Assembly: GCA_963815195.1 (NCBI GenBank)
Contig: CAWFGE010000020.1
Location: 224,001 to 288,000 of the forward strand
DNA length: 64,000 nucleotides
Direction: 5' to 3'
Source of the DNA: an uncultured Planctomycetaceae bacterium
GTDB taxonomy: Bacteria > Planctomycetota > Planctomycetia > Planctomycetales > Planctomycetaceae
The notes beneath the pieces were generated by a model that worked only from the letters and a program-made list of their open reading frames with translations, did not search any database and was not told where the DNA came from. Both the position numbers and the translations under genes were made by a program. This document shows, piece by piece, positions 6,393-23,413 of this stretch (position 1 is its first letter; every line of letters starts with the position of its first letter).

Positions 6393-7669
6393 TGGTGTGG
6401 CTCCCCTTCCTGCTCGTTGACTTCAGTTTGACCGTCGTTGGTTTTTTCAAACGGGAACAACCAGTCCCGTACAACATCGACAACAGCTTGCAGGCGTCCA
6501 TTATCGAACCCTTCACGGTACACTCCACTCATACTATCGTCAACGTGCCCCATAACGGCTTTGACTGCCGGCAGGTCGCCCGACCGTTCCCCGATCGTCT
6601 GGAACGTGTGACGCAGTGCGTAGAAGTTCAGCCGACCGCGTTTGAGTCCCAACTGCTCCAACAACTTCCTGCACTCTTGGGCGACGCTATCAATCGACAT
6701 GCCCCGTTTCGCCTTGTCTTCGCTCGCGACCGTCCGCACCCAGCGATTGCCGTACTTCGTCAGAAAGCACAGATCGGCGTCGACTTCGTCCTTCGGTTCC
6801 GGGCGTTCTGCAATCGCAGAACGCAGTGCGGAGACCGTTTCGGGCCACAACGCGCAGCGACGTTCCACGCCCGTTTTCGGCCTTGGAAAGTTAATGCAAG
6901 CGGATTCCAGATCGACTGCGGATAGAGGCAAATTGGCGATGTCGGATTGACCGAATCCGCAGTTGATGCCCAATAGAATCATGGCCTTCAGAGGAACGCC
7001 TGCGGCGTCGATCATCGCCCGGAGTTCGTGGGCCTCAAACGTTCTCTTCCCATTAGCGGCCCTTGCTTGACGCAACGTTTTCTTGCTGGGCTTGTTCAGA
7101 CTCTGCCCGTAGCGAACGGGCCGATCAATCAGGCTTTGATCGTAGGCATACTTGAAGACCATCCGGCATCGGCCAATCTCGTTGCCCAGTGCGACCGGAC
7201 CGCGTTTCTCCGCCAAGGCTTCGCGGAGGTTTTCAAAGTGATCGGGGATCAGATCATCAACCAGATGGTTTTGCCCGAAGACCTCAACGAGGTTTTGGCA
7301 GGTGCAATAGTAATCGCGGAACGATCTTTCCGAGAGTTCCCCCGTCTTCATCTTTTTGCTTTTGCTGGTCAGAAACCGATTGCAGAGATCGGCGATGGTA
7401 ATTCCGCTCTCATCTTCCGGGGGCAGGCCTTTGGGGGGGTTGCAACCGTTCCTAAGGATATAATCCTTTTGGAGTGTGTAGGCGTCCAGTGCGGCCTGCC
7501 AGTCGGACGCATAGCCGAAGTAAAAGCGTTTGCCTTTGATCTTCTTGTAAAGGCGTCCCGAGGGGGGATGATGTGAGAGGGGAAATTCGGGGTAGGGTTT
7601 TTCCCAGCTTGGGCTGGATACTTTACTGCCGGATGCCGATTGGCTAGACTTGGTAGGTATGATGCTCAC
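6389..7669 (-). CDS. Tyrosine recombinase/integrase, divergent from the tRNA
   Basis: RPKTG, FYALRHTF, MGH and YRE catalytic-region motifs; N-terminal arm-binding-like KKIKGKRFYFG; likely GTG start at 7669 (ORF open to 7795). Confidence 0.85.
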   Translation of the reverse strand: MSIIPTKSSQSASGSKVSSPSWEKPYPEFPLSHHPPSGRLYKKIKGKRFYFGYASDWQAALDAYTLQKDYILRNGCNPPKGLPPEDESGITIADLCNRFLTSKSKKMKTGELSERSFRDYYCTCQNLVEVFGQNHLVDDLIPDHFENLREALAEKRGPVALGNEIGRCRMVFKYAYDQSLIDRPVRYGQSLNKPSKKTLRQARAANGKRTFEAHELRAMIDAAGVPLKAMILLGINCGFGQSDIANLPLSAVDLESACINFPRPKTGVERRCALWPETVSALRSAIAERPEPKDEVDADLCFLTKYGNRWVRTVASEDKAKRGMSIDSVAQECRKLLEQLGLKRGRLNFYALRHTFQTIGERSGDLPAVKAVMGHVDDSMSGVYREGFDNGRLQAVVDVVRDWLFPFEKTNDGQTEVNEQEGEPHQ

Positions 7670-7870
7670 CTCGCAACATCGACCATAGGTGGGTGTCATT
7701 GACACCCGGCAGGTGCTTTCTGCTGGGTGTCTCACGTCACCTGCAATCGTATCAAATGGGCTTGCGGGTGTCGAATCAGCAAAAACGGGTGTCACTGACT
7801 GGCCGTTTAGGTGCTGAAAAGAAGAGCAAACAAGAAGAAAACCCTTAAAACCAAGGGTAAAACAGTTCCA

Positions 7871-7944
7871 GGCGGTGTAGCTCAGTTGGTTAGAGCAGCG
7901 GAATCATAATCCGCGTGTCGGGGGTTCGAGTCCCTCCACCGCTA
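7871..7944 (+). tRNA. tRNA-Met (CAT), probably elongator
   Basis: GGCGGTG/CACCGCT acceptor stem, D-arm AGCTCAGTTGGTTAGAGC, anticodon stem GCGGA/TCCGC with loop ATCATAA, T-loop GTTCGAG; CCA not encoded. Confidence 0.93.
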
Positions 7945-9166
7945 CTTTTGTACACTGCAATAGATCGTGATACTTCGCAAACGCTTGATATGTCACGACT
8001 TGCGAGTTTCCGGAATTCGACGGTTTCGACCGATTTCGAGGAGTTTCGGTCGACTGCTGCATCGGATTTTGCAGCGCTTTCGCGAAGTGGGCATCGGTCA
8101 CCTGCAGGTAATGCTTGGAAGCGATCGCCTGGGAATTGCCGATCCAGGCACAGACCACATGCGAGGGAAATTCTTCCTCCAATTCCGTTTGGCGGGTGCT
8201 TCGCAGGTTCTGAAACAGCTTCGGCCATTTCTTCACGCCGGCCCGTTTTATAATGCGCTCCAATTGGGTTCGCAAGTTCGTATTCGAATCACGATAACGG
8301 GTAATGACAAACTCCGCCCCTGGTTTCGCGAGTTGCTTGCACTCTTCCAAAAACGGTCGAAGCTCTGGAAAAATTGGAACCATCCGAGAATCGCCACCAG
8401 CGTGGTGCTCCGTCTTCGGGCTGCTCACCCGAAATCGTCCGGTTTCCCAGTCAAGGTCTTCCCATCGCAAGCCCAAATGCTCCGACGGGCACCGCAGACC
8501 CCCGTACCGGCTCAGGGCGAAGATCAGCCGCCATTCTGCATCCGGACAAGCCGCGATCACTTTTTCGGCCTCTTCCTGTGAAATAAAGTAAAATCGGCTG
8601 GGGTTCGGCTGAACTGTGGATTTCAGATCGGCGAAGGGGTTTGTGGGGATCATCTTCTTGCGGAGAGCCTTGGCGAAAAACTGCTTAGCGATGGCGATAT
8701 GCTTTCGGACGGTGTTTTCGGAAAGTCCCTTCGTTACCATCGACAGCCGCCAATCGTCGGCATCGCCTTCGTTCATATCGCGAAGACTACGTTCGCCACC
8801 GAAGAATTCGACCATTCGGTCGCGAGTAGTTTTCAACTTTTTGATCGTTCGTGGCTTCAGATCCGCTCGGGATTCGAGATACGATTCCAAAAACTCTTCG
8901 AGGCGAGCGGATTCCGGTTTTGGAATCAGCCCCACGCGGGCAAGGCGTTCCGCCAAGCCAAGTTCCAGTTCGGATACCCACCGAGCGGTTTCGGCATCAA
9001 GGGCGTGTCCGGAAAACTTTGCAGATACCAAATGCTCCACTCGAAGCTTGACAGCCTCTGCTTGCTTCTGCGGCATTTTCCCCAAGCGGATTGTGCGGCG
9101 TTTGCCATCGGGGGCAACAAATTGAATCTCGCGACGCCCGTTCGGATGACGAGTGATACTGGCCAT
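7904..9166 (-). CDS. Tyrosine integrase converging on, and overlapping, the tRNA 3' half
   Basis: GGLRCPSE (R), SPKTE (K), FQNLRSTR, WIGNS and KHYL (Y); likely start ATG at 9166 (MASITRHP). Confidence 0.9.
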   Translation of the reverse strand: MASITRHPNGRREIQFVAPDGKRRTIRLGKMPQKQAEAVKLRVEHLVSAKFSGHALDAETARWVSELELGLAERLARVGLIPKPESARLEEFLESYLESRADLKPRTIKKLKTTRDRMVEFFGGERSLRDMNEGDADDWRLSMVTKGLSENTVRKHIAIAKQFFAKALRKKMIPTNPFADLKSTVQPNPSRFYFISQEEAEKVIAACPDAEWRLIFALSRYGGLRCPSEHLGLRWEDLDWETGRFRVSSPKTEHHAGGDSRMVPIFPELRPFLEECKQLAKPGAEFVITRYRDSNTNLRTQLERIIKRAGVKKWPKLFQNLRSTRQTELEEEFPSHVVCAWIGNSQAIASKHYLQVTDAHFAKALQNPMQQSTETPRNRSKPSNSGNSQVVTYQAFAKYHDLLQCTKVAVEGLEPPTRGL

Positions 9167-9255
9167 TGGGATTCCTTTTCTGCAACACACCCATCACGAC
9201 TGACTGAGGATTTTAACCGAAACCGCAGCGTGACGGAGCAACTAAGGTGGATAAG

Positions 9256-9489
9256 CTATGAAGTGGGGTCGAAATCTGCATTGCGTTTGGTTCGATTAAT
9301 CCAGGCCCGCAGGTCTTCTGGGTCATACAACACGCGATGGCCAATCGGCACGTGTGGGATAGTGCCGGCCTTGGTCATCGTCCAGAGAGTGCGTTCGGAA
9401 ATACCCAACGCTTTGGCGGCAGTGCGGCAATTCCAGAGGAGTGGCGTTGAGAACCCAAAGGAATCGTGCGAAGAGGATTGAGTTGTCAT
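9256..9489 (-). CDS. Excisionase-like helix-turn-helix protein
   Basis: AAKALGISERTLWTMTKAGTIPHVPIGHRVLYDPEDLRAW pattern; directly upstream of the integrase. Confidence 0.8.
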   Translation of the reverse strand: MTTQSSSHDSFGFSTPLLWNCRTAAKALGISERTLWTMTKAGTIPHVPIGHRVLYDPEDLRAWINRTKRNADFDPTS

Positions 9490-9631
9490 GGGACAAGAAT
9501 TCAAAAAAGCCACGAAACGGTTTCCACGCGGGAAACGTTTGTGGCTTTGTTGCTTCAACGACCAGTATAACCGGGGAAAGCTCTCCGACAAGTCCCTAAT
9601 TTGAAAAAATCGGCCGTTGGAGTTTGCCGGG

Positions 9632-10106
9632 CTATGTCGCCGTGCCGGGATACCTCGAATTGGTTTCCAATTCCAAGACCCGCTGATCACCGAGAAAGGT
9701 GGCGTTCATGAATTGAAGGAAGCCGTAATACCCCAGTAAGACATAAGGCAAGGGAGCAGTGGAAAGGCCCACAAGCGCCGGCCAGCGCCAAACCGACGAG
9801 CCGCTTGCCAATTGAAGCTCCACGTCGGCAAATCGGAGCGGATAGGCGGTGCCCCGCCAGCGGAGAACATGGCCCGCGTCCGGGCGGAGTTGGGCTCCGA
9901 TGAGGAAAGAGGCATCTAAAGGAAAGATCGAATCTTGGGCTCCCGTATCGACCAGCGCCTTGGAAAAGGGGAGAGATGAGGCCGGACCAATGATCCGAAC
10001 ATCAATAAATGGCCGCCAGATTTGAGTGACGCCCGTGGGATGCGAGGCGATCGTCCTCCGGCGGCCCGGTGATTTGGACAGGCTGGTAGGGATAGCGCAG
10101 GCTCAT
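9632..10106 (-). CDS. Retropepsin-like aspartic protease (frameshift near 10055)
   Basis: Manual translation gives MSLRYPYQ... then, after the shift, WRPFIDVRIIGP...ALVDTGAQDSIFP...VLLGYYGFLQFM (DTG motif and C-terminal LLG). Confidence 0.7.
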
Positions 10107-10336
10107 TCCAATTCCGGTCCTCCTTGCCAATCGTCCTCCAAGACAATCCGCTCGTACCACACCGTTTCCGGGTTTTCGCCCGATTGCTTCACGAGTTGGT
10201 GCAACGTTTGCAGATCGGCCGACGCTGCCACAAGGCGCATGCCGTCATCGCTAAATGCGGCCCATTGCCCACCATATCGCCGCAATTCTTCCTCTGAAAA
10301 CCGATCCCGGTTTTCTCGATAGACTTGAAGATCCAC
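10103..10336 (-). CDS. DUF5678-like small protein
   Basis: ELRRYGGQWAAFSDDGMRLVAAS motif; GTG start after AAGGAG; stop overlaps the protease ATG. Confidence 0.6.
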   Translation of the reverse strand: MDLQVYRENRDRFSEEELRRYGGQWAAFSDDGMRLVAASADLQTLHQLVKQSGENPETVWYERIVLEDDWQGGPELE

Positions 10337-10814
10337 AGTTTTCTCCTTCAACAAACGCGATTGCGAAAAGAACAACCTCCTCTTTCAAGCTAGGGCCAGC
10401 GCCGCATCGGGTCAAGGTTTTTCCCCAGGAAGTCGTTTTGGGAACCGGGAAATAAAAAAGGCCGCGGGCGTTTGCCCGCGACCAAGCTGCATGTTCCCGC
10501 CGATTCATTCACCCGTTCTCATGCTTGATCGAGCCGGAACTTGGCGAAGAAGCAACGGCCACAAACGTCCCGCACAAAGGGAAAACGTCCGTGGCCAAAG
10601 GGAATGGCCGGAACATGCAACGATTTTCATTATGGCTTTCGGCCAGCGTGATTTCTAGACAATTCTTGTGAATTTCATTGATTCCGCCCACGCAAGGCCC
10701 CCAAGTACCCATTCCAACAGGCTTTGGCTTGGGGGATTCGTGAATGGGTCAAGCGCTCTCGCAAAAAATCCAAAAAAACGCTTGCGGCGGGAAAGGACCA
10801 ATGGTCTAATTAAC

Positions 10815-10828
10815 TGAACGTACGTTCA
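10815..10828. promoter_or_regulatory. Perfect 14-bp palindrome, putative operator
   Basis: TGAACGTACGTTCA lies between a promoter-like stretch and the GGGGAGG RBS of the sigma-like gene. Confidence 0.45.
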
Positions 10829-10853
10829 ATATCCAGTAGGGGAGGTTAATCAC

Positions 10854-11441
10854 GTGTCGCTAGCACCCACATCCCACAACCTATACCGAGAATTCATGCA
10901 GGCCCTCTCTCAGTCACCAAATGACTCTCGAACAATTTGGCAAACGATCGTTGGACATCCGTGGTATCAACTCGAACTCGAAAAAGCCGCACAGCATTTG
11001 GTTCGTTGTCAAAACCTTCAAATCTTTCCGGAAGACATTCAGCACGAAGCCATCCTGTTCTTGGCACGCACTCTGGAGCGACATCCGGATCTTCAGTTCG
11101 ACTCGCTAAATCCATCCCAAGAGCACTTTAGGCACTTGATGCGAAAAATCATTTTTCGGGATTGCCAGCAGGCTCTTCGCCGACTCAGGCGAGGACTACG
11201 AGAGATGCCCTTGACAGACGCATGTTTGGCAACAGATTTCGATTCCCAGTCAGCGACACCAACGAATTGGGACTGGAATCTGAAAATGCTGCGTCCTCAG
11301 GAACGGTTCGTCGTCGATCAGTATTTACAGGGACGAACGTTTTGCGAAACTGCGGCGTTGCTTGAGGTGAGCCTTCCGACGGTCTAACGGCGATTTCAAC
11401 GGGCGATCACAATCCTTCGGCAGTCTGTCCAAGAATCGTAG
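10854..11441 (+). CDS. Sigma-70/ECF-like factor with an in-frame TAA at 11385-11387
   Basis: EDIQHEA (region 2-like) and LRPQERFVV...GRTFCETAALLEVSLPTV*RRFQRAITILR (region 4 HTH continues through the stop to TAG at 11441). Confidence 0.6.
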
Positions 11442-11639
11442 TTCATCGCTTCTCGACCGACGACCTGCAGGCTGCTGCAGTTGCGGCTCACGGCTACCAA
11501 TCGAACGTTTTCCAACATTCTTCTCTGATTTCAAACAAAAAACCGAGCGGAATTTCTGAAAATAACTCCCATCTCAAAGCATATATATAGAGGGAGGACT
11601 TTAGTGTTCTCAAGAACACTTTAAGCGAAAGGCTTATTC

Positions 11640-12273
11640 ATGCTCGGCGTCATTTTTCGGTTTCACACTACCTTCGAATCACTTGTGAAATTCTCGCTCA
11701 ACTGCCGGCGTCACAGATTGAAGGACTGGCAGATGCCATTTATGCCGCCTGGAGCAAGGAACGCACCGTATTCTTATGCGGCAATGGAGGAAGTGCCGCC
11801 AACGCTTCGCATGTCGGAGAGGATTTGGCGAAGAGCACCCTAGATCAAAACGATCTTGCTAGTGATCGCGCGTAAACGGCTCAAAGTGTTGAGCTTGGCG
11901 GATCAAACGTCCGCCATCCTCGCCTGGGCAAACGACCAAGGCTTCGAGCACGTTTTCGTTCGAGCAACTGAAAGGATTCGCCCGAAAGGGAGATCTCTTG
12001 ATCGGGTTCAGCGGCAGCGGGCGAAGTCCCAACGTCATCAAGGCCGTCGAATGGGCCAACTCGGCGGGACTCGTGACGTGGGCACTCACGGGGCACGATG
12101 GAGGAGCCCTCCGCACATCGGCCCAGCACCTTCTCCGCATTCCTCTAAATGACATGGGCGTCATCGAGTCGATTCATCTGTTGCTGATGCATTGGATCGT
12201 TGACGACGTCTATGCCCGCATCCATCAGCAAGGGCGTTATGCCAGCCCGGAGACAACGGTGCTCTCAGACTAG
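11640..12273 (+). CDS. gmhA: Phosphoheptose isomerase (SIS domain), about 3 frameshifts
   Basis: Stitched frames give VFLCGNGGSAANASH, AWANDQGFEHVF, GDLLIGFSGSGRSPNVIKA, LTGHDGG and IESIH. Confidence 0.8.
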
Positions 12274-12364
12274 CGTCCGATTGGAATAAAGCAATGTTTT
12301 TTCGTGTTGTCGTTCCGACGGGAATGACTGATCCCCTGAGGCGATTTGCGGACTGAGATTTTAT

Positions 12365-15300
12365 ATGCGCCGGCTCATACTACGATCGTTTCAAAGTCCG
12401 GGCGACATTGTGATGCTCACTGCGGCGGTGCGCGATCTGCATCGAGCCTATCCCGGCCGGTTTGAAACCGATGTTCGCACCTCCGCACAGGATCTTTGGG
12501 AAGGGAATCCGCTTATCACCTCTCTGCGGGAAGTGGACCGCGGGGTGGAATGCTTCGACATGCAATATCCGCTGATCCACCAAAGCAATCAACGTCCTCA
12601 TCACTTTCTGCACGGTTTTATTCAATACCTAGAACGGCGGCTAAGTCTCACAATCCCCGTGACGGATTTTCGCGGGGACATATATCTCACCGACGCGGAA
12701 AAACGATGGGGCGATTTGCAAGAACAATTCAATCTTCCCGAGCGCTATTGGATTGTTGTGGCCGGGGGAAAATACGATTTCACGGCCAAATGGTGGAACC
12801 CGGCCTCTTATCAAAGAGTCGTTGACCATTTTCGATGTGCTCTCAATTTCGTGCAGTGCGGAGAAGCGGGACATTGGCATCCCCCGCTAGACGGCGTGCA
12901 AAATCTCGTCGGTCAAACCCGCCTGCGGGATTTACTGCGGCTGGTGTATTTCGCAGAGGGCGTTTTGTGCCCGGTCACGTTGGCCATGCATCTCGCCGCC
13001 GCCGTGGAGCGTCCCCCAAACTGGCCTGCCCTCCGTCCCTGTGTTGTGGTGGCCGGCGGGCGAGAACCGGCTCACTGGGAAGCCTATCCTGGCCATCAAT
13101 TTCTTCACACAGTCGGGACGTTGGACTGCTGCGCCACGGGAGCCTGTTGGCGTTCGCGTTGTCAAACGGTGGGGGACGGCGATGCCAAAGATCGGTGCAA
13201 CACCTGCGAAAAGCCAGTTCGGGTTTCCGAAGACCTCTCGATTCCCCAGTGCATGGAAATGATTTCCTCAACAGACGTGATTGCAGCCATTGAGCGATAC
13301 CAGATCGAGTCACCAACCTCCGCGCCATCTCGGAACCGTGGCATTGCTGTGACGCCTCGAATCCCGATTCCGCCAATGCCATCGCTCTGCAATGCCAATC
13401 ATGCGGAACAGGCTCGCTTCCTCATTGATTGCCGTCAGGCTGAACTGGACCGGCGTGCTCTCGAAGTCGTGTTGCGCCATTTGCACCACTATTACCCCAG
13501 TCACGACGTTGACGTTCTGGTCAACCAAAACGATTCATCAGCAGTGGACTGCCAGGGAGGGCGATTGCTTGTCGCGGGTTCGGACGCGGTGACACATCAA
13601 GGATACCGTCAGGTTTTCCAAATGGATTGGCGTCCCTGTGAATACGAGCCTCCTCAATTTCTGAATACACCCGCGACACGCTGTTTGCTGGAAGATTTTC
13701 ATCTCACACCGATCCCGGATTTGTTGCTTACCTCTTCTGTGCCTTTTAAGGACGCTCCGCCCATGCCATACACGACAATTCAGCCAAGCGACAACAATCC
13801 TTCGGCTGTGGTTACAAAGAAAGCTGGGAGAAACCGCAAAACGACGCCGCTTAGCGTGCGGTTTTATCATGGACTCGGAGATTGTGCATTTTTTTCGCAC
13901 TTGATTCCGCTCTATCTCCGCCGTGGTTACGAAATCCAAGTCGAATGCACGGCCGACAAACGGCTATTATTTGAAGCCGCCGGGGCCAAGGTGATCGGAA
14001 CAGGAGGTCGAGACGACCATCCGTGGGCCTATCCAGGGGAAGACCTGCGTCCCGTGCATGGCCGGTTCTGGCAGGGGAGCAAGCCCGCCCACAATCTCTC
14101 GCAATCTCCGCTTCCATCCATCGGCAGCCAGGGGGAATTGTGGAAAGAGTATTGTGAAGAACGGATCGATATTCGGACCCATCTTGCCGCGAAAGCTTTG
14201 AAAACCGCAGAGCGCTGGCTGTCCGGGCTTCCTCGCCCGGTAGTGCTGCTTCATACGAAAGCCAACACGTCCCAAGCCAGAAAAAGTCTTCCTGACCGGA
14301 CCACGCTGGATTTCTACCGGGCGCTTTTGGACCGAATGGAGGGATCAATCATCCTCTTGGATTGGGACAACCGCGTTCCCCGGGTCAATTCCTGGCGAGT
14401 CCGCCATCTTGACGATCTGGGCGATTGCCCCACCGAAGTTCTGATGGCCCTGATGACACAAGCCGACCTTCTCATTGGCGTCGATAGCGGCCCCTTGCAC
14501 GTGGCACGATTTACCGGGATTCCGACCGTCGGCGTGTGGATGCCCGGGCACTACCCGGCCCGCTACAGCCTTCCCCGCCATGAACAACTCAATGTTGTTT
14601 TGGCAGAACCGACGGCCCAATGGAATCGCTTTAAGCGCATTCCTTGGAACATTGTCGAGCATTCCGGAAATACCTTTGAAGCCAGTCAATTGGCGACTAT
14701 CTGCGCCCGCATGCTCGGAACTGCTTATTACCTCGATTGGAACGACATCGCAGCCGACATTCAACTGCAGCAGTTTGTCGGGCAGTATTGCCGAGGCCGG
14801 ACCGGCCAAGGCCTTTCGGATGATGTTGACCGGCATCGCAGCTTTGATCGGCTGCTCAAGGAAACCACGCGACGCTTTCCCGATCCGACCATTGTGGAAA
14901 CAGGGACAATTCGGGCTGCCGAGGATTGGAACGGGGCTGGTTTTTTCACCTACTTGGCGGGGACCTATCTCTTCCGCCGGGGGGCGGGGCGACTGCACTC
15001 GGTGGACACCAATCCGCAATCCTGTCGGTTCGCAAGAGAGGAAACGGCGGTGTTCGGATCAGTCGTGCAAACCCACCAAAGCGATTCTGTCCGGTTCTTA
15101 AAACAATTCACCGAGCCAATCGACGTGCTGGTTTTGGATTCCTTGGATACCACGGAAGCAGGTCATGCCGAACATGCCCTCCGCGAGATTCAAGCCGCGG
15201 CGAACCGGCTCCACGAACAAAGCCTGGTTGTATTCGACGACACCCCCTGGAGTCGTGGCCGCTGGGTCGGCAAAGGAGCCCTGGCCGTGCCCTGGCTGTT

Positions 15301-15376
15301 GGAACGGGGCTGGAAGCTTCTCTACGCCGGGTATCAGGTGATCCTGGAAATGAACCCCGCGAGCACCGGTTCCTGA
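12365..15376 (+). CDS. Multidomain GT9 (ADP-heptose transferase-like) x2 plus C-terminal class I SAM methyltransferase
   Basis: SPGDIVMLTAAVRDL...MHLAAA (GT9 domain 1); HGLGD...LLIGVDSGPLHVA (GT9 domain 2); IVETGT...LHSVD...IDVLVLDS...LVVFDD (Methyltransf_24-like). Confidence 0.8.
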   Translation: MRRLILRSFQSPGDIVMLTAAVRDLHRAYPGRFETDVRTSAQDLWEGNPLITSLREVDRGVECFDMQYPLIHQSNQRPHHFLHGFIQYLERRLSLTIPVTDFRGDIYLTDAEKRWGDLQEQFNLPERYWIVVAGGKYDFTAKWWNPASYQRVVDHFRCALNFVQCGEAGHWHPPLDGVQNLVGQTRLRDLLRLVYFAEGVLCPVTLAMHLAAAVERPPNWPALRPCVVVAGGREPAHWEAYPGHQFLHTVGTLDCCATGACWRSRCQTVGDGDAKDRCNTCEKPVRVSEDLSIPQCMEMISSTDVIAAIERYQIESPTSAPSRNRGIAVTPRIPIPPMPSLCNANHAEQARFLIDCRQAELDRRALEVVLRHLHHYYPSHDVDVLVNQNDSSAVDCQGGRLLVAGSDAVTHQGYRQVFQMDWRPCEYEPPQFLNTPATRCLLEDFHLTPIPDLLLTSSVPFKDAPPMPYTTIQPSDNNPSAVVTKKAGRNRKTTPLSVRFYHGLGDCAFFSHLIPLYLRRGYEIQVECTADKRLLFEAAGAKVIGTGGRDDHPWAYPGEDLRPVHGRFWQGSKPAHNLSQSPLPSIGSQGELWKEYCEERIDIRTHLAAKALKTAERWLSGLPRPVVLLHTKANTSQARKSLPDRTTLDFYRALLDRMEGSIILLDWDNRVPRVNSWRVRHLDDLGDCPTEVLMALMTQADLLIGVDSGPLHVARFTGIPTVGVWMPGHYPARYSLPRHEQLNVVLAEPTAQWNRFKRIPWNIVEHSGNTFEASQLATICARMLGTAYYLDWNDIAADIQLQQFVGQYCRGRTGQGLSDDVDRHRSFDRLLKETTRRFPDPTIVETGTIRAAEDWNGAGFFTYLAGTYLFRRGAGRLHSVDTNPQSCRFAREETAVFGSVVQTHQSDSVRFLKQFTEPIDVLVLDSLDTTEAGHAEHALREIQAAANRLHEQSLVVFDDTPWSRGRWVGKGALAVPWLLERGWKLLYAGYQVILEMNPASTGS

Positions 15377-15443
15377 TTGCCCGCGTCTCCAACACGTAAC
15401 GTTTTTTTACCGTTTCCGTCCTTTTTGCGCTGAGAGTCCGCGC

Positions 15444-16217
15444 ATGGATACGTCATCACCGATTTTTGTCACGGGGATGCCCCGCTCCGGCACGACCTTG
15501 ATGCAGCATTTGCTGTCGCATCACCCCCGCATCGTGATTCACGGCCAAGAGCCCAAGTCGGTCGCTTGGGGAGAATGGTTGAGAATACTGAACCAGGGGA
15601 TCCTGTTCGCGAAAGAATCCAATGCCCGCCTCACCTATGAATGCCCGCACTACGCAGCGGAAGCGGCACGACCTCAGCACACATCGAACCAGTTTCTGTC
15701 CTTAATGCGCGACTATTTGACCGGAGGATTGGCATCTCCCCGTTGGGGTCTGAAATCTCTCACCCAATGCCGAATTTCCGCTGCACTCCTTCTCAAAGCC
15801 TGGCCGGAAACGCGTTGGATTGTGTGTGTCAGGCATCCCATTCGTTCGTTTGAATCGCTGCGAAACACATTTGATCGAAGCGCGGCGTTTACTCTCCAAG
15901 AACTTGCATACGGTTGGTGCAAGGCGGTGTTGTTTGGAATGTTTCACCCACAAGCCACGCTGTTGCAGTGCGACCAATTGCTGACTGCCCGGGAACGGCA
16001 CCACCGTATGGCTGAACTCTTTCGATTCCTCAATGAAAGTTATCCGCCCGAGGTGCGGCAGTTCGTGGATCAATGGCCCATCATCCACAAAGTCGTCGCT
16101 GACGAAGATCGGCAATTTCGGTTCGGTGACGGGGAACTCGAAGGCCTAGGAACCGATTGCCCTTTGCTCTCCAACCTGGCGGAGAAACTCAACTATCGCT
16201 TGGAGATGATTTCATGA
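15444..16217 (+). CDS. Sulfotransferase family protein
   Basis: PIFVTGMPRSGTTL (5'-PSB loop), WGLKS and VRHPIRSFES (3'-PB). Confidence 0.85.
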   Translation: MDTSSPIFVTGMPRSGTTLMQHLLSHHPRIVIHGQEPKSVAWGEWLRILNQGILFAKESNARLTYECPHYAAEAARPQHTSNQFLSLMRDYLTGGLASPRWGLKSLTQCRISAALLLKAWPETRWIVCVRHPIRSFESLRNTFDRSAAFTLQELAYGWCKAVLFGMFHPQATLLQCDQLLTARERHHRMAELFRFLNESYPPEVRQFVDQWPIIHKVVADEDRQFRFGDGELEGLGTDCPLLSNLAEKLNYRLEMIS

Positions 16218-17722
16218 TCACCTCATCGATTTGGGACCAAATCGGCCATCCGACGCTGTTGGTCTTGGGAGATTTGATCCTGGACCGGTACGTCACCGGC
16301 TCATGCAACCGAATCAGTCAAGAAGCTGCCGTTCCGGTACTTCACACCGTGGAGCAGGAGGTTCGGCTGGGAGGAGCGGTTGCCGTGGCTAATCTCGCTC
16401 GGGGACTTGGCGCCAATGTTCTTCTCGCGGGGATTGTCGGGGAGGATGCCGAAGCGAACCAGATTCGCAAAATCTGGGGGGCGTTCGATCTCCAACCATC
16501 TCTACTGCTCGTCGATCCGACTCGTCCCACAACGGTCAAGCAGCGATTCTTGACGCGAACACCCGATGGCACATTTCAACATCATTTGCGAGTTGATACG
16601 GAGCAAACTCATCAAATCTCGCCCTCTTTGGAAAAGGAATTCCTCGGCCAAGTCAAATCTCAACTCGACCGAATCGGTGCCATCCTGCTGTCCGACTATG
16701 ACAAAGGCGTTCTGACGCCCCATTTGGTCCAGGGAATCATCGAGGCGGCTCAGAATCGAGAGGTTCCAGTCCTGATCGATCCCGCCAGGATGAACTCGTT
16801 TTCCAAGTACCGGGGAGCGACTCTGATCACGCCCAACCGCGTCGAAACCGAGCGAGCAGTCGGCTTTTCGTTATGCGACAGACGGAACATCCTCTCCGCG
16901 GGGCATCTCTTAAGAAAACAGTACCAGCTTGAATCCGTGTTGATCACGCTCGACCGCGATGGATTGGCTCTCGTCACCTCTGATGTGGAAAAAACCATCG
17001 TTCCCACGCGGCCTCGGAAAGTCTGCGACGTGGCCGGGGCGGGGGATATGGTTCTCGCCGTGGCCGGGCTGGGCCTGGCCGCTAAACTGTCGTGGCCGGA
17101 GATTCTGGAGCTAGCAAACACGGCGGCGGGCCTGGAAGTCGAACGCCAAGGCGTAACGCCGATCACCCGCGAAGAGATTTCGATAGCACAGCCATTGCCA
17201 CATTCTGACACTTCCAAACTGGCGTCCCTGGAGCAACTTGAAAAGCTGGTCTGCGAACGCCGCCGGGACGGCCGAACCATCGTACTGACGAACGGCTGCT
17301 TCGATCTCTTTCACATCGGTCATCTTAGAACACTGGAAGAGGCTGCCGCTCAGGGAGACATCCTGATCGTCGCCATCAACAGCAATGAGTCTGTGAAAAA
17401 GCTCAAAGGCCCGATGCGCCCCGTGATCGAAGAGAACCAGCGGGCACAAATCATCGCGGCCCTGGAATGTGTCGATCACGTCCTGGTTTTTGACGAGGAC
17501 ACGCCTCATCGATTACTAGAAGCCATCCGGCCGGATGTGTTGGTGAAGGGCGGTTCGACAAAGGACGTCGTCGGACGTGAGATCGTGGACGCGTATAGGG
17601 GGCGGATGCACATTACATCAGAAGTGCCCAATCTTTGTACGTCACAGTTAATCGCCTTAATTCGCGGTAGCGAATGCGATTCCTCTGCACGAAGCCTCAT
17701 CGCATGCGAGCAACAACTTTAA
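16214..17722 (+). CDS. hldE: Bifunctional heptose-7-phosphate kinase / heptose-1-phosphate adenylyltransferase
   Basis: LVLGDLILDRY...RISQEAAVPV, LSDYDKG and DVAGAGD (PfkB kinase) plus TNGCFDLFHIGH and PDVLVKG; ATGA overlap with the sulfotransferase. Confidence 0.92.
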   Translation: MITSSIWDQIGHPTLLVLGDLILDRYVTGSCNRISQEAAVPVLHTVEQEVRLGGAVAVANLARGLGANVLLAGIVGEDAEANQIRKIWGAFDLQPSLLLVDPTRPTTVKQRFLTRTPDGTFQHHLRVDTEQTHQISPSLEKEFLGQVKSQLDRIGAILLSDYDKGVLTPHLVQGIIEAAQNREVPVLIDPARMNSFSKYRGATLITPNRVETERAVGFSLCDRRNILSAGHLLRKQYQLESVLITLDRDGLALVTSDVEKTIVPTRPRKVCDVAGAGDMVLAVAGLGLAAKLSWPEILELANTAAGLEVERQGVTPITREEISIAQPLPHSDTSKLASLEQLEKLVCERRRDGRTIVLTNGCFDLFHIGHLRTLEEAAAQGDILIVAINSNESVKKLKGPMRPVIEENQRAQIIAALECVDHVLVFDEDTPHRLLEAIRPDVLVKGGSTKDVVGREIVDAYRGRMHITSEVPNLCTSQLIALIRGSECDSSARSLIACEQQL

Positions 17723-17731
17723 GAGAAAACC

Positions 17732-18076
17732 ATGCGCTATACGAATTGCGAATGTGAAGCCCCAGGATGGTGTCCACGGCACCAGTGTCATAAATCCCAG
17801 TTTTTCTTCGACATGTGTCGCTTTAATCAAAACATGTTTGAGCTTTTTGAAACAAATATATTACAGGAGCACGTTTCCACGCCGATCCGTCAAGCCGATA
17901 TTTGTCGACATCGTTGCGATTACCTACGAGATGTCGAATGCCCCACCTGCTTGGGACATGTACTTTTGAAAGTCTTCGAGTGTGCGATCCATAGTGAATG
18001 CACGATTTCAAAACAGATCGATGGAATCGCGCAATGTACGACTTGTACTGACTTTGAAATCGAGACGCCAAACTAG
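17732..18076 (+). CDS. Small Cys-rich hypothetical protein (13 Cys in 114 aa)
   Basis: CxC...WCPRH...CRHRC...CPTC...CAIHSECT...CTTC; starts 9 bp after the hldE stop. Confidence 0.7.
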   Translation: MRYTNCECEAPGWCPRHQCHKSQFFFDMCRFNQNMFELFETNILQEHVSTPIRQADICRHRCDYLRDVECPTCLGHVLLKVFECAIHSECTISKQIDGIAQCTTCTDFEIETPN

Positions 18077-18099
18077 GCCCTTTTTTTAGGAGAAACCCA

Positions 18100-19086
18100 A
18101 TGCCGACTCTCGACTGGTGCCCTTATTCACCTTTCAGCCTTCCTTCTAAACTAAATGTCTATTGCTACGTTCAATTGGATGATTTGCTGTGTATCGGTCA
18201 CACCTACTTCTCAATTGACTGGGACGGGGAAAAATATACACTTCCAGAGGGTCCATACGGTCCCATCCCATACGGTCCGCTCGATGCTTCCGTTAAAAAA
18301 ACAGGCGTCGATAGCTCAGGAATCGCCGAACTCTTGTTCTCGGCGTCCATTAGTAAAGAAGGCCAATGTAATTCCAGCTTTTCCTTGGTTTCGGGGCCGA
18401 GTTGCTTTACACCTCCAGCTATTCTCGAACAACTTGGCGGAGAAGTCGATCCGGGTTGTTGCGGCACCGTCTTTCCCAATGTACCCTTTACCGAAATCCG
18501 TTTCTATAGCGATGGGTGCGCCCTTTCCAAATGGCAATCCTCCAGAACTTCCAGAACCATGTTCCAACGTGCCCCCGGGGCAATGTTGTGACAAACATGG
18601 AGGTGGAAAAGGGGGAGGAAACCACTGTGGTCAGCAAATGTGTGAATTCAGCGGTAACCCGGTTCGTTACGCGAGCGGAGAATTGCTCTATTCCGAAACG
18701 GATCTGATCTCAAGTGGTTACGGAGTTCCTTGGGGACATACGCGCCGTTTTTTGAATCGTCTCTCGGTTCCGGAAACGCTCGGGAACGGTTACAACTGGC
18801 AGATAGAGCAGTGGCCCTACCTGATCATTGACTTCGAGGGGAACGTCACGATCATGGGGCAACATCCCGTGTTCTTCGACAAAATCGGGACCGCTTTTAC
18901 ACCTCGCTTCGCCATTACTCACGACACATTGACCTATGATTCGGCTGCGGAGACCTACACGCACACAGCCAAAGATGGCACGGTCACGGAATTCAATGCC
19001 GTCACGCGAATGTTCACGCGGCGGACCGCACCGGGCGGCTCGGTCATTGAGGTGAAAGCCGTGGCAGCCAATGGATTCAATATCAC
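18100..19086 (+). pseudogene. Rhs/YD-repeat protein 5' part (Cys-rich N-terminus plus DUF6531-like domain), frameshift at ~18515, truncated by IS1380
   Basis: AGGAGA RBS; removing one G in GATGGGTGCG joins ORF 18100 to SGNPVRYASGELLYSETDL...WGHTRRF...LGNGYNW...YTHTAKDGTVTEF. Confidence 0.75.
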
Positions 19087-20865
19087 CCCGGATTATTCAT
19101 CAGGTCCGTGCGTGGTGAGTATTTCCGTGGCGGAAAGTGCACCGGGTGGTTGGGGAGCGGAGGATGGGCGGACCGCCCCCTTTCCCCCTGGGGCCTGGCG
19201 ATCGTTGGGTGAGTGAAGGAAAGAAACAGAAAGGCGGATGCCACGATGGCGAACTGCTCAGTCCCGAAGAACCAGTTGCTCATGGGCGTGACGTGGGAGA
19301 GGTGTGTAGGGCCGCGGGCGAGCTCCACGCGGACGTGGCCAGAGGTTGGCCAGACGCAGCGATCGGATGCGGGAAGACATCGCGGCCCAAAACGCGCGTC
19401 ACGCTTTCCTCAATGTAAATCACGAGGCGGCGGGAGTGCTTCACGACCCGCGCTCCTGTCCGCAGCACCGACTGCTGGAAACGATGCAAGTCCCAGCAAC
19501 CGCCCAACTCGTCCTCGAACTCGATCCGCAGCATCGACGCCAGGTTGAACGCCAGCAGGCCCAACAGCAACGTCACTTCGTTCTCCGCAAACACCGATGA
19601 CGAAAGACGGCAGCCAATCACCGCGTTGAATTCGCCCAGCCGGTCCTCGAACGTGCCGCGCTTGCGGTAGTGCGACAACACCTCATCCGCCGAGCGTTGC
19701 TCCTCGGTCCAGTTTGTGATCAGGAAGAAGTAACGCGGAAACAGAGCCAGTTGGCCCGTCTTCACATCCGGCTTATCGACGATCACCAGAATCACCCGCT
19801 GCGGATGACGCCAGCCCTCGGCTTGGTACTTTCCGAGTTCGATCACGTCCTCATATCCGCCTTTGGGCGGCCGGCCTACGGGACGTGTCAGATAGGGCGC
19901 GGCCATCTCTTCCAGCACGTTGTTCTTCTTGATTCTCCCGCAAAAACGGATGTTTTCGTCGGTCAACTCATCCAACACCGGGCCGGCGATGAAACCCGCA
20001 TCGATCCGGAGGTCGAAGCTCCACGCCAGTTGCCGGGCCTTGCCGACCACGTTGCGAATAAACCGCCGGATGCCATTGGCCGTATGCACGCTGCCTTGCC
20101 GCAGGATGGCATGAATGAAGCCGTTGCCCAGCCGCTGGCCTTCCCGCGCGCCATCGTAGTCGCCGCCGACCGAGAAACTCGCGACCAGCGGATGATAGAC
20201 CGTCTCTTTATAGTAACCGTTATAGCGGGCCCCCGGCTGCTGGCCATAAACCTGCATCGGGAAACTGTCGATGTCGATGGTGGCGTAGCGGACGCGGCGG
20301 TCGCTGTCGCCGGTGCTTTTGATGTGCCGATGGATCCAGTCGAACAAGGCGCTCCGCACGGCCTCGAGATTCGTCTTGCAGTCGGCCAGCCAATCGATGA
20401 GCCGGGACTGAGTGGGTTGGCTGGCCAGGCGTTGGTTGAGCACTTCTTCGCCGGGCCGGTCCCAGGCGGCCATCTTCATGGCGGGATCATGGGCGAGCCG
20501 GTCGAGATCATCCTGATCGGACTCTCCCAGGGCCATGGCGTAGATTCTTTCCCGCAGCAGTTCGACGCCTTGATAGCGGACGCGGTCTTGCTGGCGAGGA
20601 TCGATCAGTCGATCGGCAAGCGATTCGGTGAGTCCGAGCCGATGATCGAAGTCCCGCAGCAGAACGGCACCGGAGTGTGACGTGAGCCGCCCATCGACGG
20701 CCTTGACCTTGATGGAACGATTGAAATCGGGCTCGAAAATGTTAGGCTGAACTTCACCCATCGCGTGATTCCTCCGTATGGTGTTGGGATTGCATATAAC
20801 ACTTAAACGCAGGGGGTCACGCGATGGTTCCTTCTTTTTTCATCTTTTTTGGTGAATAATCCGGG
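19087..20865 (-). mobile_element. IS1380-family insertion sequence (transposase ~19257-20761, C-terminal frameshift)
   Basis: Perfect 13-bp terminal IRs CCCGGATTATTCA (19087) and TGAATAATCCGGG (20865); transposase motifs LTSHSGAVLL, LASQPTQSR, IDIDS, RIDAGF and YRKRGTFE. Confidence 0.92.
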
Positions 20866-21411
20866 TTCATTGAGCAGGTCATTGAGAAAGTGAAGCGACT
20901 CGACTTGAAGGATCCCGTTAAACAAAATAGTGAAATCACCAAAACCATCATGGACATTACGGTAAAAAGCCTGCAATTTATCGGGTAACAAATCGAATTT
21001 CCTACGCCCTGTGCGAGTCAACTGAGTGAGTCTTACCGGCGAATTGCCTAACGAAAAAACGAATTTGGTTTCGCCACCGATTTCATAGGCATAAAGATAT
21101 ATCAGTGAAGGGCGTTCTTCGGAACATTCCAAGACTCGAATTCCGAGACACATTGTTTTAAGAAAGTTGGAAATCGACGGAACGAGGTCGAGGAAATCTC
21201 CCCAGATCCGACTCCATTCCGGTTCCAACCCCTTCTCCTGAAATTCTAGGGCTTGCTTCCAAGTGCGAGGGACTTTGCGAGGATTCTTGAGGGTTGTCAC
21301 GGATGACGACAATACGCAATCTGATTCAAGTTTCCTGGCACTAACCCGTCGGGACTCTTTCAAGAGTTGTTTGTCAGTTGGGATTTTCATGAGTGCTTTT
21401 TTCCTCAACAC
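20866..21411 (-). CDS. SMI1/KNR4 (SUKH)-like immunity protein, 3' end cut by IS1380
   Basis: LLPDKLQAFYRNVHDGFGDF...GIL motif; directly follows a toxin-tip fragment; AT-rich. Confidence 0.55.
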
Positions 21412-21595
21412 GATTCGTCCGGATCCTTCGATTCATTCAACAAAGACCGGATCTTTTTTGAGATGGCTTTTCTCGCATTGCCTTCCTCTATAATCATTCG
21501 TTTTTTGAAGGACTTGCTAACTGGAAATTCAGGGTCAAGCCGAGTTCCTGTTCCTTGAAACCCCGTCCATGTTACAAATGATTCGTCTTGTATCG
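21405..21595 (-). pseudogene. Orphan C-terminal (putative toxin tip) fragment
   Basis: Open frame ...SIQDESFVTWTGFQG...DPDESC* begins at the repeat boundary; its stop overlaps the immunity gene start. Confidence 0.4.
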
Positions 21596-21696
21596 AAGTT
21601 TTTGTAGGGCAGGCTCCCGCCTGCCTTTTTCCGTTATTTGGCAATCGTCAATCAATAGAAAATAGAAGGCAGGCAGGAGCCTGCCCTACTCGACTC
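21596..21696. repeat. REP doublet (REPIN-like) copy 1, GTAG family
   Basis: AAGTTTTT + GTAGGGCAGGCTCCCGCCTGCC...GGCAGGCAGGAGCCTGCCCTAC (86 bp, 21604-21689) + TCGACTC. Confidence 0.9.
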
Positions 21697-21839
21697 AAAT
21701 CCTCGGCTTTGAGTGCTTGTTGGAATATGGGTGATAGTTGTTCGGTTGTGTTCGCACGAGTTATAACTTGTTGTTGCATTGACTTTAACCCTCAGGTGAT
21801 CGAATAGATCGGATAAATACGCGACGATGTTGTCACGAT

Positions 21840-21939
21840 CATTAATCAACAACGGCATTTGGCAATAGCAGGAAAACGTCAACTCGTGACAATCCGCTGG
21901 CTCATGGTAGTGCTTAACAGCCTTTCGATGTCCCACCAT
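21840..21939 (-). pseudogene. RAYT/Y1-transposase N-terminal fragment
   Basis: HRKAVKHYHEPADCHELTFSCYCQMPLL resembles REP-associated tyrosine transposase N-termini. Confidence 0.55.
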
Positions 21940-22072
21940 CCTCGATTCAGCCTCTTAGATTGCGCAATTTGCCTCCCATAGCCTCCGGCCACCAAACACT
22001 GGCGTGAAAAAGGACGTCCCATCAGCCACATAGTATCGATGATAATTCGGCATACTTGAGGTGTCCCCTAAA

Positions 22073-22094
22073 TCGATGGTCTGCACAGCCCTAC
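22073..22094 (-). repeat. Degenerate GTAG-type REP, related to the copy at 62285-62309
   Basis: TCGATGGTCTGCACAGC---CCTAC versus TCGATGGTCCGCACAGCGGACCCTA. Confidence 0.6.
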
Positions 22095-22135
22095 TTGGCT
22101 CCTAGAAAACAAGGGTAACTGCATTGAGTGCGTTC

Positions 22136-22621
22136 CTATGCCTTTTCCTGAGGCCGTTCAGAATCTGGAAGATACTCAGTAAGCGCGTCTTCTACATCGA
22201 CTACGTATTCGTAAATTTGAAAAGCATCGCACGTGGGGCGAAATTTGACAGTAGCAGATGTTTGAGTTGGTTCGATAACAATCTGCACCATAAAGTGAAC
22301 TTCCGTGACGCCAGACACTGTGTCTTTGCGTTGTATTAATACACATCATTTGCCGTGATTCCAATAGCAACGTTGTTCAAATCGTTGGCTGTTTTCAGCC
22401 GGATCGTCGATCTGAACTTCTATCGTGCTGATTTCAGCACATGGAACGTCTATGTACTTTCGAAAGTCTAAATACTTTTCGACAAAATAGATATCTATCC
22501 TCTCGGCTGGTTTCCGATCTCGAAGGTCAAAAAATTCTTCCGCAGTAAAAACAATGTTATGCCATTCGGCTTCTTTGTGTTTCTTATACCTAAACGAAAT
22601 CATTACATTATCGGCTCTCAT
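22136..22621 (-). CDS. Putative immunity protein, split into ORFs 22346-22621 and 22136-22318; homologous to 62486-62968
   Basis: Shares Y-x6-W, EFFDL/EYFDL, YIDVP/YLGVP and YWNHG/FWSGG with the 62.5-kb protein; lies downstream of a toxin tip. Confidence 0.55.
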
Positions 22622-22732
22622 TCTATTTGATCCATTTCGTATGATCTTGGGGCAAAGACTTGCCCACTTGGCGCGATGTGAGATTCACCGTAAATGAAAT
22701 ACAAAAACGGTCCAGAATAAATCCTGCTGATC

Positions 22733-22918
22733 TCAGTTAAGTTTTCTACCTTCGTAATACCTTCCTAACAGGCGACGTAATTTGGTGGCTTGTCCCGGTG
22801 TTAAATTGCCAGAAACCTCGCGATTATTTATTTCTTCTAGCAGTTGGCGGCGTGTCAGTTTACGTCGCCTTATGTCGTCGCCGCTAAACGGACTCCAATT
22901 AGCTGAATTGAACTCATC
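22733..22918 (-). pseudogene. Orphan toxin C-terminal tip ending ...YYEGRKLN
   Basis: Begins at the REP boundary; its C-terminus resembles ...AFEGRDLG of the HINT-toxin at 62987. Confidence 0.5.
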
Positions 22919-23092
22919 AAGTTTTTGTAGGGCAGGCTCCCGCCTGCCTTTTTCCGTTATTTGGCAATCGTCAATCAATAGAAAATAGAAGGCAGGCAGG
23001 AGCCTGCCCTACTCGACTGCCTTTTTCCGTTATTTGGCAATCGTCAATCAATAGAAAATAGAAGGCAGGCAGGAGCCTGCCCTACTCGACTC
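22919..23092. repeat. REP doublet copy 2 (22919-23018) and partial tandem copy 3 (23017-23092)
   Basis: Identical to 21596-21696 including flanks; copy 3 lacks most of the left arm. Confidence 0.9.
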
Positions 23093-23369
23093 CGAGCGCC
23101 AGCCAGTTTTTTGTAAATTCCTTCTTGATCCAACCCCACCGTGTGGAGTAGGCCTTATCGCCGGGCGGCAGCGACCAGATGGCGTGCAGATGGTCGTGAA
23201 ACAGCACAAGTGCGTTGATCGTGAACGGCCATTTCATCCGGCAGCGGCGAATGATGCTGCCGAGCATGGGCCGCGCCGGGATGCCCGTCAAAAAGCGTGC
23301 CCGACGGTCGGAGACGATCGTGAAAAAGAATGAGCCTCCGGGAACATGGGCGCGTCGCCAGTTGGGCAT
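23082..23369 (-). mobile_element. RAYT (REP-associated HUH tyrosine transposase), 3'-truncated
   Basis: MPNWRR...GGSFFFTIV...WPFTINALVLFHDHLHAIW.LP.GD..YS.RW..IK; the stop TAG comes from the REP GTAG; the catalytic-Tyr region is absent. Confidence 0.85.
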
Positions 23370-23392
23370 GATCGTCGTTCTCCTCATCGAAA

Positions 23393-23413
23393 GGCCGGCA
23401 CAGCCGGCCCTAC
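23393..23413 (-). repeat. GTAG-type REP immediately upstream of RAYT
   Basis: Minus strand reads GTAGGGCCGGCTGTGCCGGCC (hairpin). Confidence 0.7.

Follow-up and report, generated by a model that had tools for sequence, protein, structure and literature searches.

Introduction

What do genes for the activation and transfer of heptose do beside a gene of the Rhs family? The question is raised by a 64,000-nucleotide stretch of DNA (the window) from an uncultured Planctomycetaceae bacterium (assembly GCA_963815195.1, contig CAWFGE010000020.1, positions 224,001 to 288,000 of the forward strand), in which six genes, all on the plus strand between 11640 and 19084, follow one another closely. They are gmhA for a sedoheptulose-7-phosphate isomerase (11640..12273), an intact gene for a 1003-residue enzyme in which two glycosyltransferases of family 9 (GT9) are fused to a methyltransferase (12365..15376), a sulfotransferase gene (15444..16217), a second copy of hldE for a heptose kinase and adenylyltransferase (16214..17722), an open reading frame (ORF) for a cysteine-rich protein (17732..18076) and the 5' remnant of an Rhs gene (18100..19084). 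An initial annotation, made from this DNA alone, had given the six co-oriented genes in the same order, which was borne out, and had proposed that methylated or sulfated heptose is added to the Rhs protein, to its cysteine-rich partner or to the surface of the producer.

The cluster of the window is a damaged copy of an operon that is recurrent in planctomycetes. It is rather probable that its GT9 enzymes put heptose on serine runs of the co-encoded Rhs capsule and that the methyl- and sulfotransferases decorate this sugar; that the serines of the capsule are O-glycosylated at all, by whatever sugar, is likely.

Recurrence of the Cluster in Relatives

A scoring of 8000 candidates gave 1470 homologues of the fused enzyme. 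A scan of genome contigs with the single protein gave no relative, while an alignment-based scan gave relatives, and the enzyme alignment retrieved 79 genome, 80 metagenome and 32 viral loci, the locus sets being the best 80 of 186 and the best 80 of 146 confirmed matches. Family counts refer to the loci of at least 12 kb, which are 112 of the 191 retrieved (95 family loci and 17 loci of distant GT9 enzymes).

In a quick tree of 109 domains of the first GT9 module (GT9a), that of the window falls within a clade of 52 rows (SH-aLRT 99) whose named rows are all Planctomycetota, and an Rhs gene is present in 29 of the 31 other loci of this clade with at least 7 kb downstream; two loci (L081 and L084) are without it despite that length. 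The usual order is GT9a, the second GT9 (GT9b), in part a methyltransferase, variable tailoring genes, hldE, the cysteine-rich gene and an Rhs gene for about 2000-2200 residues, and both order and strand are constant across several planctomycete families. GT9, hldE, the cysteine-rich gene and Rhs are thus found together in dozens of planctomycete loci, as the initial annotation had suggested checking, and the absence of linkage to Rhs elsewhere, which it had named as the finding that would count against it, is not what the clade presents. Judged by synteny in relatives, the association exceeds chance.

The members of the operon are not equally constant. GT9a is the most constant one and is sometimes the sole GT9 at a locus, and the 95 family loci include 35 with Rhs, 33 with hldE, 3 with a sulfotransferase and 2 with gmhA; the last two are rare accessory genes, and on these counts the cluster does not amount to a complete ADP-heptose pathway of its own. 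Moreover, tailoring domains swap among relatives (Methyltransf_24, Methyltransf_11, FkbM, CmcI, pyruvyl transferase and GT2). The system is an uncommon one, the whole enzyme being matched in 5 of 401 genomes of the phylum. As side observations, one Gemmataceae genome carries four near-identical GT9-hldE-Rhs clusters (L073, L074, L075 and L077), and in L081 and L216 the cluster is followed downstream by series of small proteins that resemble one another (Pfam GYF_2 in L216).

The Rhs Protein and Its Poly-Serine Loops

The Rhs remnant in the window comprises a cysteine-rich N-terminal domain, a frame change, DUF6531 (19.4 bits, under the cut-off of 24.1) and the first strands of the core, and is 47% identical to the core of an intact relative. 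In the intact relatives PF05593 is over its cut-off in all five Rhs proteins scanned, and the Rhs-associated core model TIGR03696 reaches 33.9 bits (cut-off 32.5) in L023. Their C-terminal tips are polymorphic, with one similar pair among 15 (E<=1e-4). The N-terminal domain gave no family match, and a search of the ESM Atlas with it gave no usable match; a derivation from prophage tail-tip proteins was considered and is not claimed, the matches (L216, L262, L056 and L232) being weak at E 0.001-0.07.

The likely acceptor is a set of pure serine runs in these capsules, whose places, counted in residues from the start of DUF6531, are fixed near +240, +460 and +1100, and the three sites are visible in the consensus of 20 Rhs cores. 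The runs are not simple DNA slippage, because the 149 serine runs use all six serine codons (mixed TCN and AGY). An AlphaFold model of one Rhs core (pLDDT 74, pTM 0.43) has Rhs shells as its top matches in fold (7q97, E 2.5e-30), if with low TM-scores; in it the runs are predicted as loops of low confidence (240-253, 456-472 and 1095-1113) that lead from one strand to the next. Since the intact relatives carry these conserved poly-serine loops, Rhs is favoured among the three targets first proposed.

Serine runs accompany the enzyme beyond Rhs as well. Poly-serine ORFs by a strict definition occur at 59 of the 95 family loci, that is, at 31 of the 35 with Rhs and 28 of the 60 without, and at 39 of the 60 clusters that remain after clustering at 70% identity; in the controls they were found at 1 of the 17 distant-GT9 loci and in 4 of 432 20-kb segments of the same genomes. 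All 59 lie within 6 kb of the glycosyltransferase, at a median distance of 1.7 kb, and 54 share its strand. The carriers other than Rhs include DUF6519 proteins of extracellular contractile injection systems (eCIS) and neighbouring proteins beside Baseplate_J and eCIS_core genes, and, furthermore, phage-tail genes between the tape-measure and GT9 genes. According to PMC12923769, DUF6519 is a tail-fibre anchor domain. The Rhs, eCIS and phage contexts fall in separate GT9a clades of the quick tree, in which the eCIS and phage rows were labelled from gene maps.

These figures also bear on the simplest alternative, namely that the genes are unrelated cargo piling up on integrative elements and that this copy is a relic. 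The locus is a low-GC island with integrases and insertion sequence (IS) elements, its Rhs gene is truncated and the accessory genes vary widely, all of which would fit, yet the reading is very improbable: order and strand that are fixed across several planctomycete families largely refute it, it does not account for the shared strand and short distance of the poly-serine ORFs, and the status of a relic is limited to the Rhs gene of this copy, the 1003-residue enzyme, the sulfotransferase and hldE being open.

The correlation was also approached from the Rhs side. A search for the Rhs core matched 74 of 301 genomes of the class, and 60 loci were hand-picked across the score range as a control; the scan of their neighbours ran on cluster representatives (346, standing for 387 ORFs of 170 residues or more), labels being extended to the cluster members, and L211, L214 and L215 were counted as GT9 by a custom GT9a profile rather than by Pfam. 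The 60 loci include 23 with a poly-serine Rhs, and GT9 is present in the locus in 7 of these 23 and in 2 of the other 37 (one of the two weak, 26 bits). GT9a was found in 11 of the 54 genomes searched and adjoins the sampled Rhs in 8 of the 11, and among five further GT9a copies that were examined three stand beside other poly-serine proteins. Any glycosyltransferase within 5 kb was found for 17 of the 23 poly-serine Rhs genes versus 10 of the 37 others (Fisher p 5e-4, overstated because the poly-serine Rhs are kin). The poly-serine Rhs without GT9 mostly have other glycosyltransferases, one GT4-like family in 7 loci, plus GT2, GT10, GT25 and DXD types, so the serine runs track glycosylation genes generally and the heptose cassette would be one variant.

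Several of these control loci deserve a description of their own. The GT4-like family (weak PF00534) stands beside the poly-serine Rhs in L210, L212, L217, L224, L225, L226 and L237, in loci that also hold GT2, DXD, GT10, sulfo-, pyruvyl- and methyltransferases, and is a candidate alternative priming enzyme. A family without a Pfam or NCBIfam match lies directly upstream of three poly-serine Rhs genes (L218, L227 and L229); by eye it resembles Maf/DUF115 flagellin glycosylases. In L225 (5549-12937) one open frame covers both an N-terminus that looks GT2-like by eye and a poly-serine Rhs, and in L230 two similar GT2 genes stand directly before Rhs.

The Fused GT9-GT9-Methyltransferase Enzyme

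In the 1003-residue enzyme GT9a (1-316) is followed by a further, degenerate N-lobe (about 346-456), and GT9b (about 492-785) by an O-methyltransferase domain (about 790-1000); its AlphaFold model (pLDDT 84) has two GT-B modules. Membership of GT9 (PF01075) is supported by 42.7 bits, cut-off 22, in two stretches, and the methyltransferase is matched by PF13578 at 43.9 bits and, in structure, by COMT, MeT1 and MycF (Z about 16; 16.2 for MeT1 and MycF). Several positions are strictly conserved: D14 is kept in 26/26 covering rows and D506 in 34/34, both being placed directly after the first strand of their GT9 in the model, the motif G-x-DSGP-x-H is invariant in the GT9 alignment, and C255, C256, C261, C281 and C296 are invariant in 32/32 covering rows.

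GT9 proteins take all the top places among the structural matches of GT9a: the Veillonella GT9 (3TOV, Z 22.5), WaaF (1PSW, 20.9), WaaC (2GT1, 19.3) and TibC (18.6), with rmsd 3.0-3.3 over 247-265 residues. Wherever the activity of a top match is known, it is that of a heptosyltransferase. The structural comparison suggested in the initial annotation therefore supports the GT9 fold and does not separate the enzymes of lipopolysaccharide (LPS) from those of proteins, since WaaF and WaaC match at least as well as TibC.

By analogy, the cluster would seem to work like TibC and AAH without being a member of their family, BAHT (PDB 4RAP and 4RB4). According to PMC4358343, TibC modifies serines and not threonines, uses Asp110 and prefers ADP-D,D-heptose. 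The points of likeness are a fold of the GT9 type (with TibC, Z 18.6 and an rmsd of 3.2 over 264 residues), an enzyme gene beside that of an exported substrate, and serine acceptors with an ADP-heptose donor in TibC; in addition, the four-cysteine iron-finger in the C-lobe of BAHT enzymes may have a counterpart here in the five invariant cysteines, which are at a similar place with different spacing, and the catalytic aspartate that comes after the first strand in BAHT enzymes (TibC Asp110) may correspond to D14 and D506. On the other hand, structural identity to TibC is 14-15%, the family profile matches 5 PDB sequences at E<=1, none of them TibC, and the N-terminal beta-barrel (TibC 1-97) is missing here, residue 1 of the model aligning to TibC 96. 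Furthermore, two GT9 enzymes are here fused to a methyltransferase and accompanied by their own hldE and by tailoring enzymes, and the partner, for BAHT an autotransporter beta-helix, is here an Rhs capsule with pure serine runs, or eCIS and phage-tail genes.

The likeness to LPS core synthesis consists of a GT9 pair able to act in sequence, with HldE and GmhA as donor enzymes, and of the best structural matches (WaaC, WaaF and the Veillonella GT9, Z 19-22.5). In contrast, the NCBIfam models for WaaC, WaaF and WaaQ give 22.1, 25.2 and 23.8 bits, and their cut-offs are 185.3, 134.6 and 170.2, respectively. There are also no lipid A or core genes nearby; the initial annotation was right in that neither these nor flippase or polymerase genes are seen among the neighbours scanned.

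Heptose Supply

The hldE gene of the window, whose start overlaps the stop of the sulfotransferase gene (PF13469, 59 bits), encodes a PfkB kinase fused to a cytidylyltransferase-like domain (CTP_transf_like). Its best NCBIfam models are HldE and the two HldE domains (395.7 bits, cut-off 521; 294, cut-off 345; 158.5, cut-off 181.5, respectively), that is, it is a divergent copy, best in its class and under the equivalog cut-offs. The host genome has another gmhA, another hldE (contig C4) and other GT9 genes; nevertheless, hldE stands beside 23 of the 35 Rhs-linked family members.

The initial annotation had supposed that gmhB and hldD act in trans or that a D,D-heptose is used. The former cannot be taken for granted in the host genome, which is 94.6% complete: no hldD is over the cut-off, and gmhB has no match. 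Because hldD was not found, D,D-heptose is the likely form. An unrecognised heptose-bisphosphate phosphatase may exist in planctomycetes.

Evidence against Heptosylation of Rhs and Alternative Readings

Several observations weigh against the heptosylation of the serine runs by the GT9 enzymes. With regard to the loci, 36 of the 95 family loci have no strict poly-serine ORF in view (some of these loci are incomplete), and a clade of large phages has the GT9 pair near PhoH and no serine runs within 10 kb (in L268, L271, L273-L275 and L278-L280 the pair is in reversed order). As to the Rhs proteins, 16 of the 23 independently found poly-serine Rhs have no GT9 in their 20-kb locus, and in most of the genomes of these 16 there is no GT9a match anywhere; 6 of the 23 are without a recognised glycosyltransferase within 5 kb, and the 10 serine-free Rhs genes mentioned above have one. 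Moreover, the poly-serine Rhs seem to be one lineage, those closest to the query, so the correlation on the Rhs side is not independent. With regard to the donor, hldE is beside only 10 of the 60 non-Rhs family members, gmhB is missing in the host as described and is matched in only 8 of 24 carrier genomes, and the GT9a fold is no closer to TibC than to the LPS enzymes. One consequence is clear: heptose is not obligatory, because poly-serine Rhs occur without GT9 in the locus and mostly with none in the genome.

Some of these points lead to the view that the serine runs are indeed glycosylated, with a donor other than heptose or with heptose as an outer sugar on a chain that is otherwise primed. 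The GT4-like, GT2, GT10, GT25 and DXD types beside the same Rhs lineage, the scores of only 22-25 bits with the models for WaaC, WaaF and WaaQ, the lack of gmhB in the host and the scarcity of hldE at non-Rhs loci all speak for it. It is nonetheless unlikely in our judgement, as hldE is kept beside most Rhs-linked members though the host has its own copy, and the structural matches of known activity are heptosyltransferases.

An equally improbable alternative is that the enzymes act on the surface of the producer, be it the LPS core or some other glycan, and so provide a self-mark or a mask for receptors that accompanies the toxin when it moves, and that the serine runs are flexible linkers. 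Surface polysaccharides typically undergo tailoring with methyl, sulfate and pyruvyl groups, the large phages carry the GT9 pair without serine runs and, as noted, WaaF and WaaC are matched at least as well as TibC. Such a role would, however, leave unexplained the serine runs in three unrelated neighbours (59/95 loci versus 4/432 control segments); the Rhs runs are modelled as hairpin insertions inside one domain, not as interdomain linkers; the host has separate GT9 and hldE genes; and the scores with WaaC, WaaF and WaaQ are far from the cut-offs. Heptosylation of the Rhs serines is consequently the reading that is followed below.

The Cysteine-Rich Protein

The product of 17732..18076 has 13 cysteines in 114 residues, and 13 positions are invariant as cysteine, or histidine, in the alignment; it is a probable metal-binding adaptor. 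No family match was obtained in Pfam and other profile scans, and in the ESM Atlas only unnamed clusters below 0.8. The protein looks like part of the machinery, perhaps in an adaptor role, because it lacks serine tracts and because, in several loci and proteins, its domain occurs in fusions with GT2 or methyltransferase proteins. A complex prediction of it with the Rhs N-terminal domain scored 0.01.

Its gene stands directly before Rhs in 17 loci besides the window, an arrangement that would suit a sugar acceptor, the second of the targets first proposed. We regard that role as highly unlikely: besides the missing serine tract and the fusions to GT2 and methyltransferase enzymes, the protein is absent from several intact loci, for example L087 and L024. 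As a separate observation, a small NifU_N-like protein occurs beside glycosylation clusters (L132, L135, L169, L211, L212, L214, L217, L224 and L225) and might supply metal or sulfur to the cysteine-rich modules.

Damage to the Copy in the Window

The gmhA sequence of the assembly shifts between several frames, at breaks near 11655, 11875 and 11961, and its fragments match TIGR00441 and PRK13936. The break at 11961 is probably an assembly error, because a short-read contig of depth 2.4 has a one-base difference at this point and agrees with the window in every other position; the short-read contigs reached this position only, not the other two breaks nor the frame change of the Rhs gene. That contig, together with the gaps in the IS copies (1 to 3 relative to the window copy in all but one case among the genome's other copies), means that small indels here may be assembly errors. 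Frameshifts split 2 of 15 homologous genes, a very small sample. In the Rhs gene the frame changes near 18490-18520, and a profile of the relatives' N-terminus, built with the window protein excluded, matches both frames (E 3.5e-14 and 1.8e-7).

The Rhs gene ends at 19084, about 330 codons in, where an IS1380-family element begins (19085..20868, minus strand; transposase 19280-20761, NF033539 over cut-off, with terminal inverted repeats), which has 14 near-full copies in the genome. Of the core, about 150 residues are left in the remnant, whose end precedes the first poly-serine site; because the IS removed all three serine runs, the cassette lacks its predicted acceptor in cis in this strain. 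The rest of the gene was searched for across the assembly and is absent. On the far side of the IS the genes are on the minus strand, and the nearest one is likewise interrupted by the IS; at least one other IS copy was apparently inserted without target duplication, and none of the short-read pieces listed bridges the junction. The simplest reading is that a deletion at the IS accounts for the lost remainder of Rhs, with a mis-assembly of the junction as a possible alternative.

Elsewhere in the same genome there is another Rhs-type gene with a serine-rich N-terminus (G000:C15:296156-301402) and a broken serine-rich Rhs region near GT4 and other probable glycan genes (G000:C15, about 326000-349000; L325-L327). 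These Rhs genes could offer an acceptor in trans or belong to a second system.

The Genomic Island and Its Neighbours

The cluster lies on an island that adjoins a tRNA-Met gene (7871..7945, plus strand, ARAGORN), the probable integration site, with one tyrosine integrase (PF00589) on either side, both on the minus strand: the first (7904..9190) overlaps the tRNA with its 3' end and the second is at 6389-7795. An excisionase-like ORF (9256..9690, minus, HTH_17, PF12728) follows, and the GC content of the region 5441-23400 is 53.9%, as against 57.3% and 59.8% in the flanks. A second copy of the attachment site was looked for in the genome and not found; tRNA integration is for this reason inferred from position only.

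Before gmhA lies an ORF (10854..11387, plus strand, early stop at its end) labelled from its motifs as a possible regulator like an extracytoplasmic function sigma factor. Scans with Pfam, PHROG and NCBIfam gave no match; a tblastn match of 29% was found upstream of the cluster in L065, and Sigma70_r2 is at the equivalent place in L011. Past the IS, an ORF cut by its other end (20803-21411, minus) is 73% like a stretch on contig C8 and by eye resembles an SMI1/KNR4-like immunity protein, with no family match. Further downstream a repeat of about 100 nucleotides (21591-21695 and 22916-23091) has several copies, also on contigs C2, C11 and C22, and adjoins fragments of a small transposase-like ORF (23082-23387); we take the two to be a REP/RAYT pair.

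Proposed Mechanism and Relation to Known Systems

If the GT9 enzymes do heptosylate the Rhs capsule, the steps might be as follows. HldE, with GmhA, would raise the pool of ADP-heptose, GT9a would prime serines in the cytoplasm as TibC and AAH do, and GT9b would extend this by another sugar, in the way in which WaaF acts after WaaC. The fused O-methyltransferase and the sulfotransferase, joined in relatives by enzymes of the pyruvyl-, FkbM-, CmcI- and GT2-type, could then build a strain-specific glycan, the cysteine-rich protein perhaps helping to tie the enzymes to their substrate. The coated capsule with its polymorphic C-terminal tip would be exported by some means other than type VI secretion, and the coat would most likely serve recognition or evasion in conflict between cells.

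The intact relatives share DUF6531, the YD shell, the Rhs-associated core and the variable tip with Rhs toxins such as RhsA (7Q97), Rhs1 (7PQ5), RhsP and Tse5, and differ in the cysteine-rich N-terminal domain, the serine-run insertions and the linked glycosylation genes. Moreover, only 5 of the 24 carrier genomes gave a match to TssC of type VI secretion (PF05943), and the 94.6% complete host genome gave none.

In serine-rich repeat proteins with GtfA/GtfB, dedicated cytoplasmic glycosyltransferases are encoded beside a serine-rich exported protein, and in mycobacteriophages dedicated glycosyltransferases for the virion are reportedly encoded beside a particle protein. The enzyme families, substrates and export of the present system are others than in both, and its acceptors are short homopolymeric serine loops, not the long alternating repeats of the former. 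No accessory Sec (SecA2/SecY2) or GtfA/GtfB genes appeared among the scanned neighbours, where no dedicated search was made for them. In the open-access literature (supplements and subscription papers not covered) neither Rhs-linked glycosylation nor this GT9 subfamily was found described, and open-access text likewise gave no account of an Rhs or other polymorphic toxin that is glycosylated and has an operon of its own for this purpose; the accessible portions of PMC13721041 and PMC3482391 contain nothing on a link between Rhs and glycosylation. By this comparison the cluster appears to be a variant form of dedicated protein O-glycosylation, here for polymorphic toxins.

Significance

A direct test is feasible, since ADP-heptose is made by E. 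coli and the predicted acceptor is a short defined peptide; it should be made on the intact relatives and not on this defective copy. Glyco-engineering would also gain a handy tag from an enzyme able to glycosylate plain serine runs. If the proposal is true, Rhs toxins have a second variable layer, bacterial poly-serine tracts, usually taken as inert linkers, have a function, and there is a second lineage of protein O-heptosyltransferases outside TibC and AAH, common to toxins, contractile injection systems and phages.

More tentatively, and with somewhat less than even confidence, the poly-serine runs can be regarded as a portable glycosylation tag for Rhs capsules, eCIS tail fibres and phage tail tips, in which serine loops are combined with a swappable cassette (the GT9 heptose pair here; GT4-, GT2- and Maf-like sets elsewhere) that would build a strain-specific methylated, sulfated or pyruvylated glycan. 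If this is so, these toxins would vary on two axes, an inner toxic tip and an outer, O-antigen-like sugar coat, and it is the sugar coat that would set targeting or evasion.

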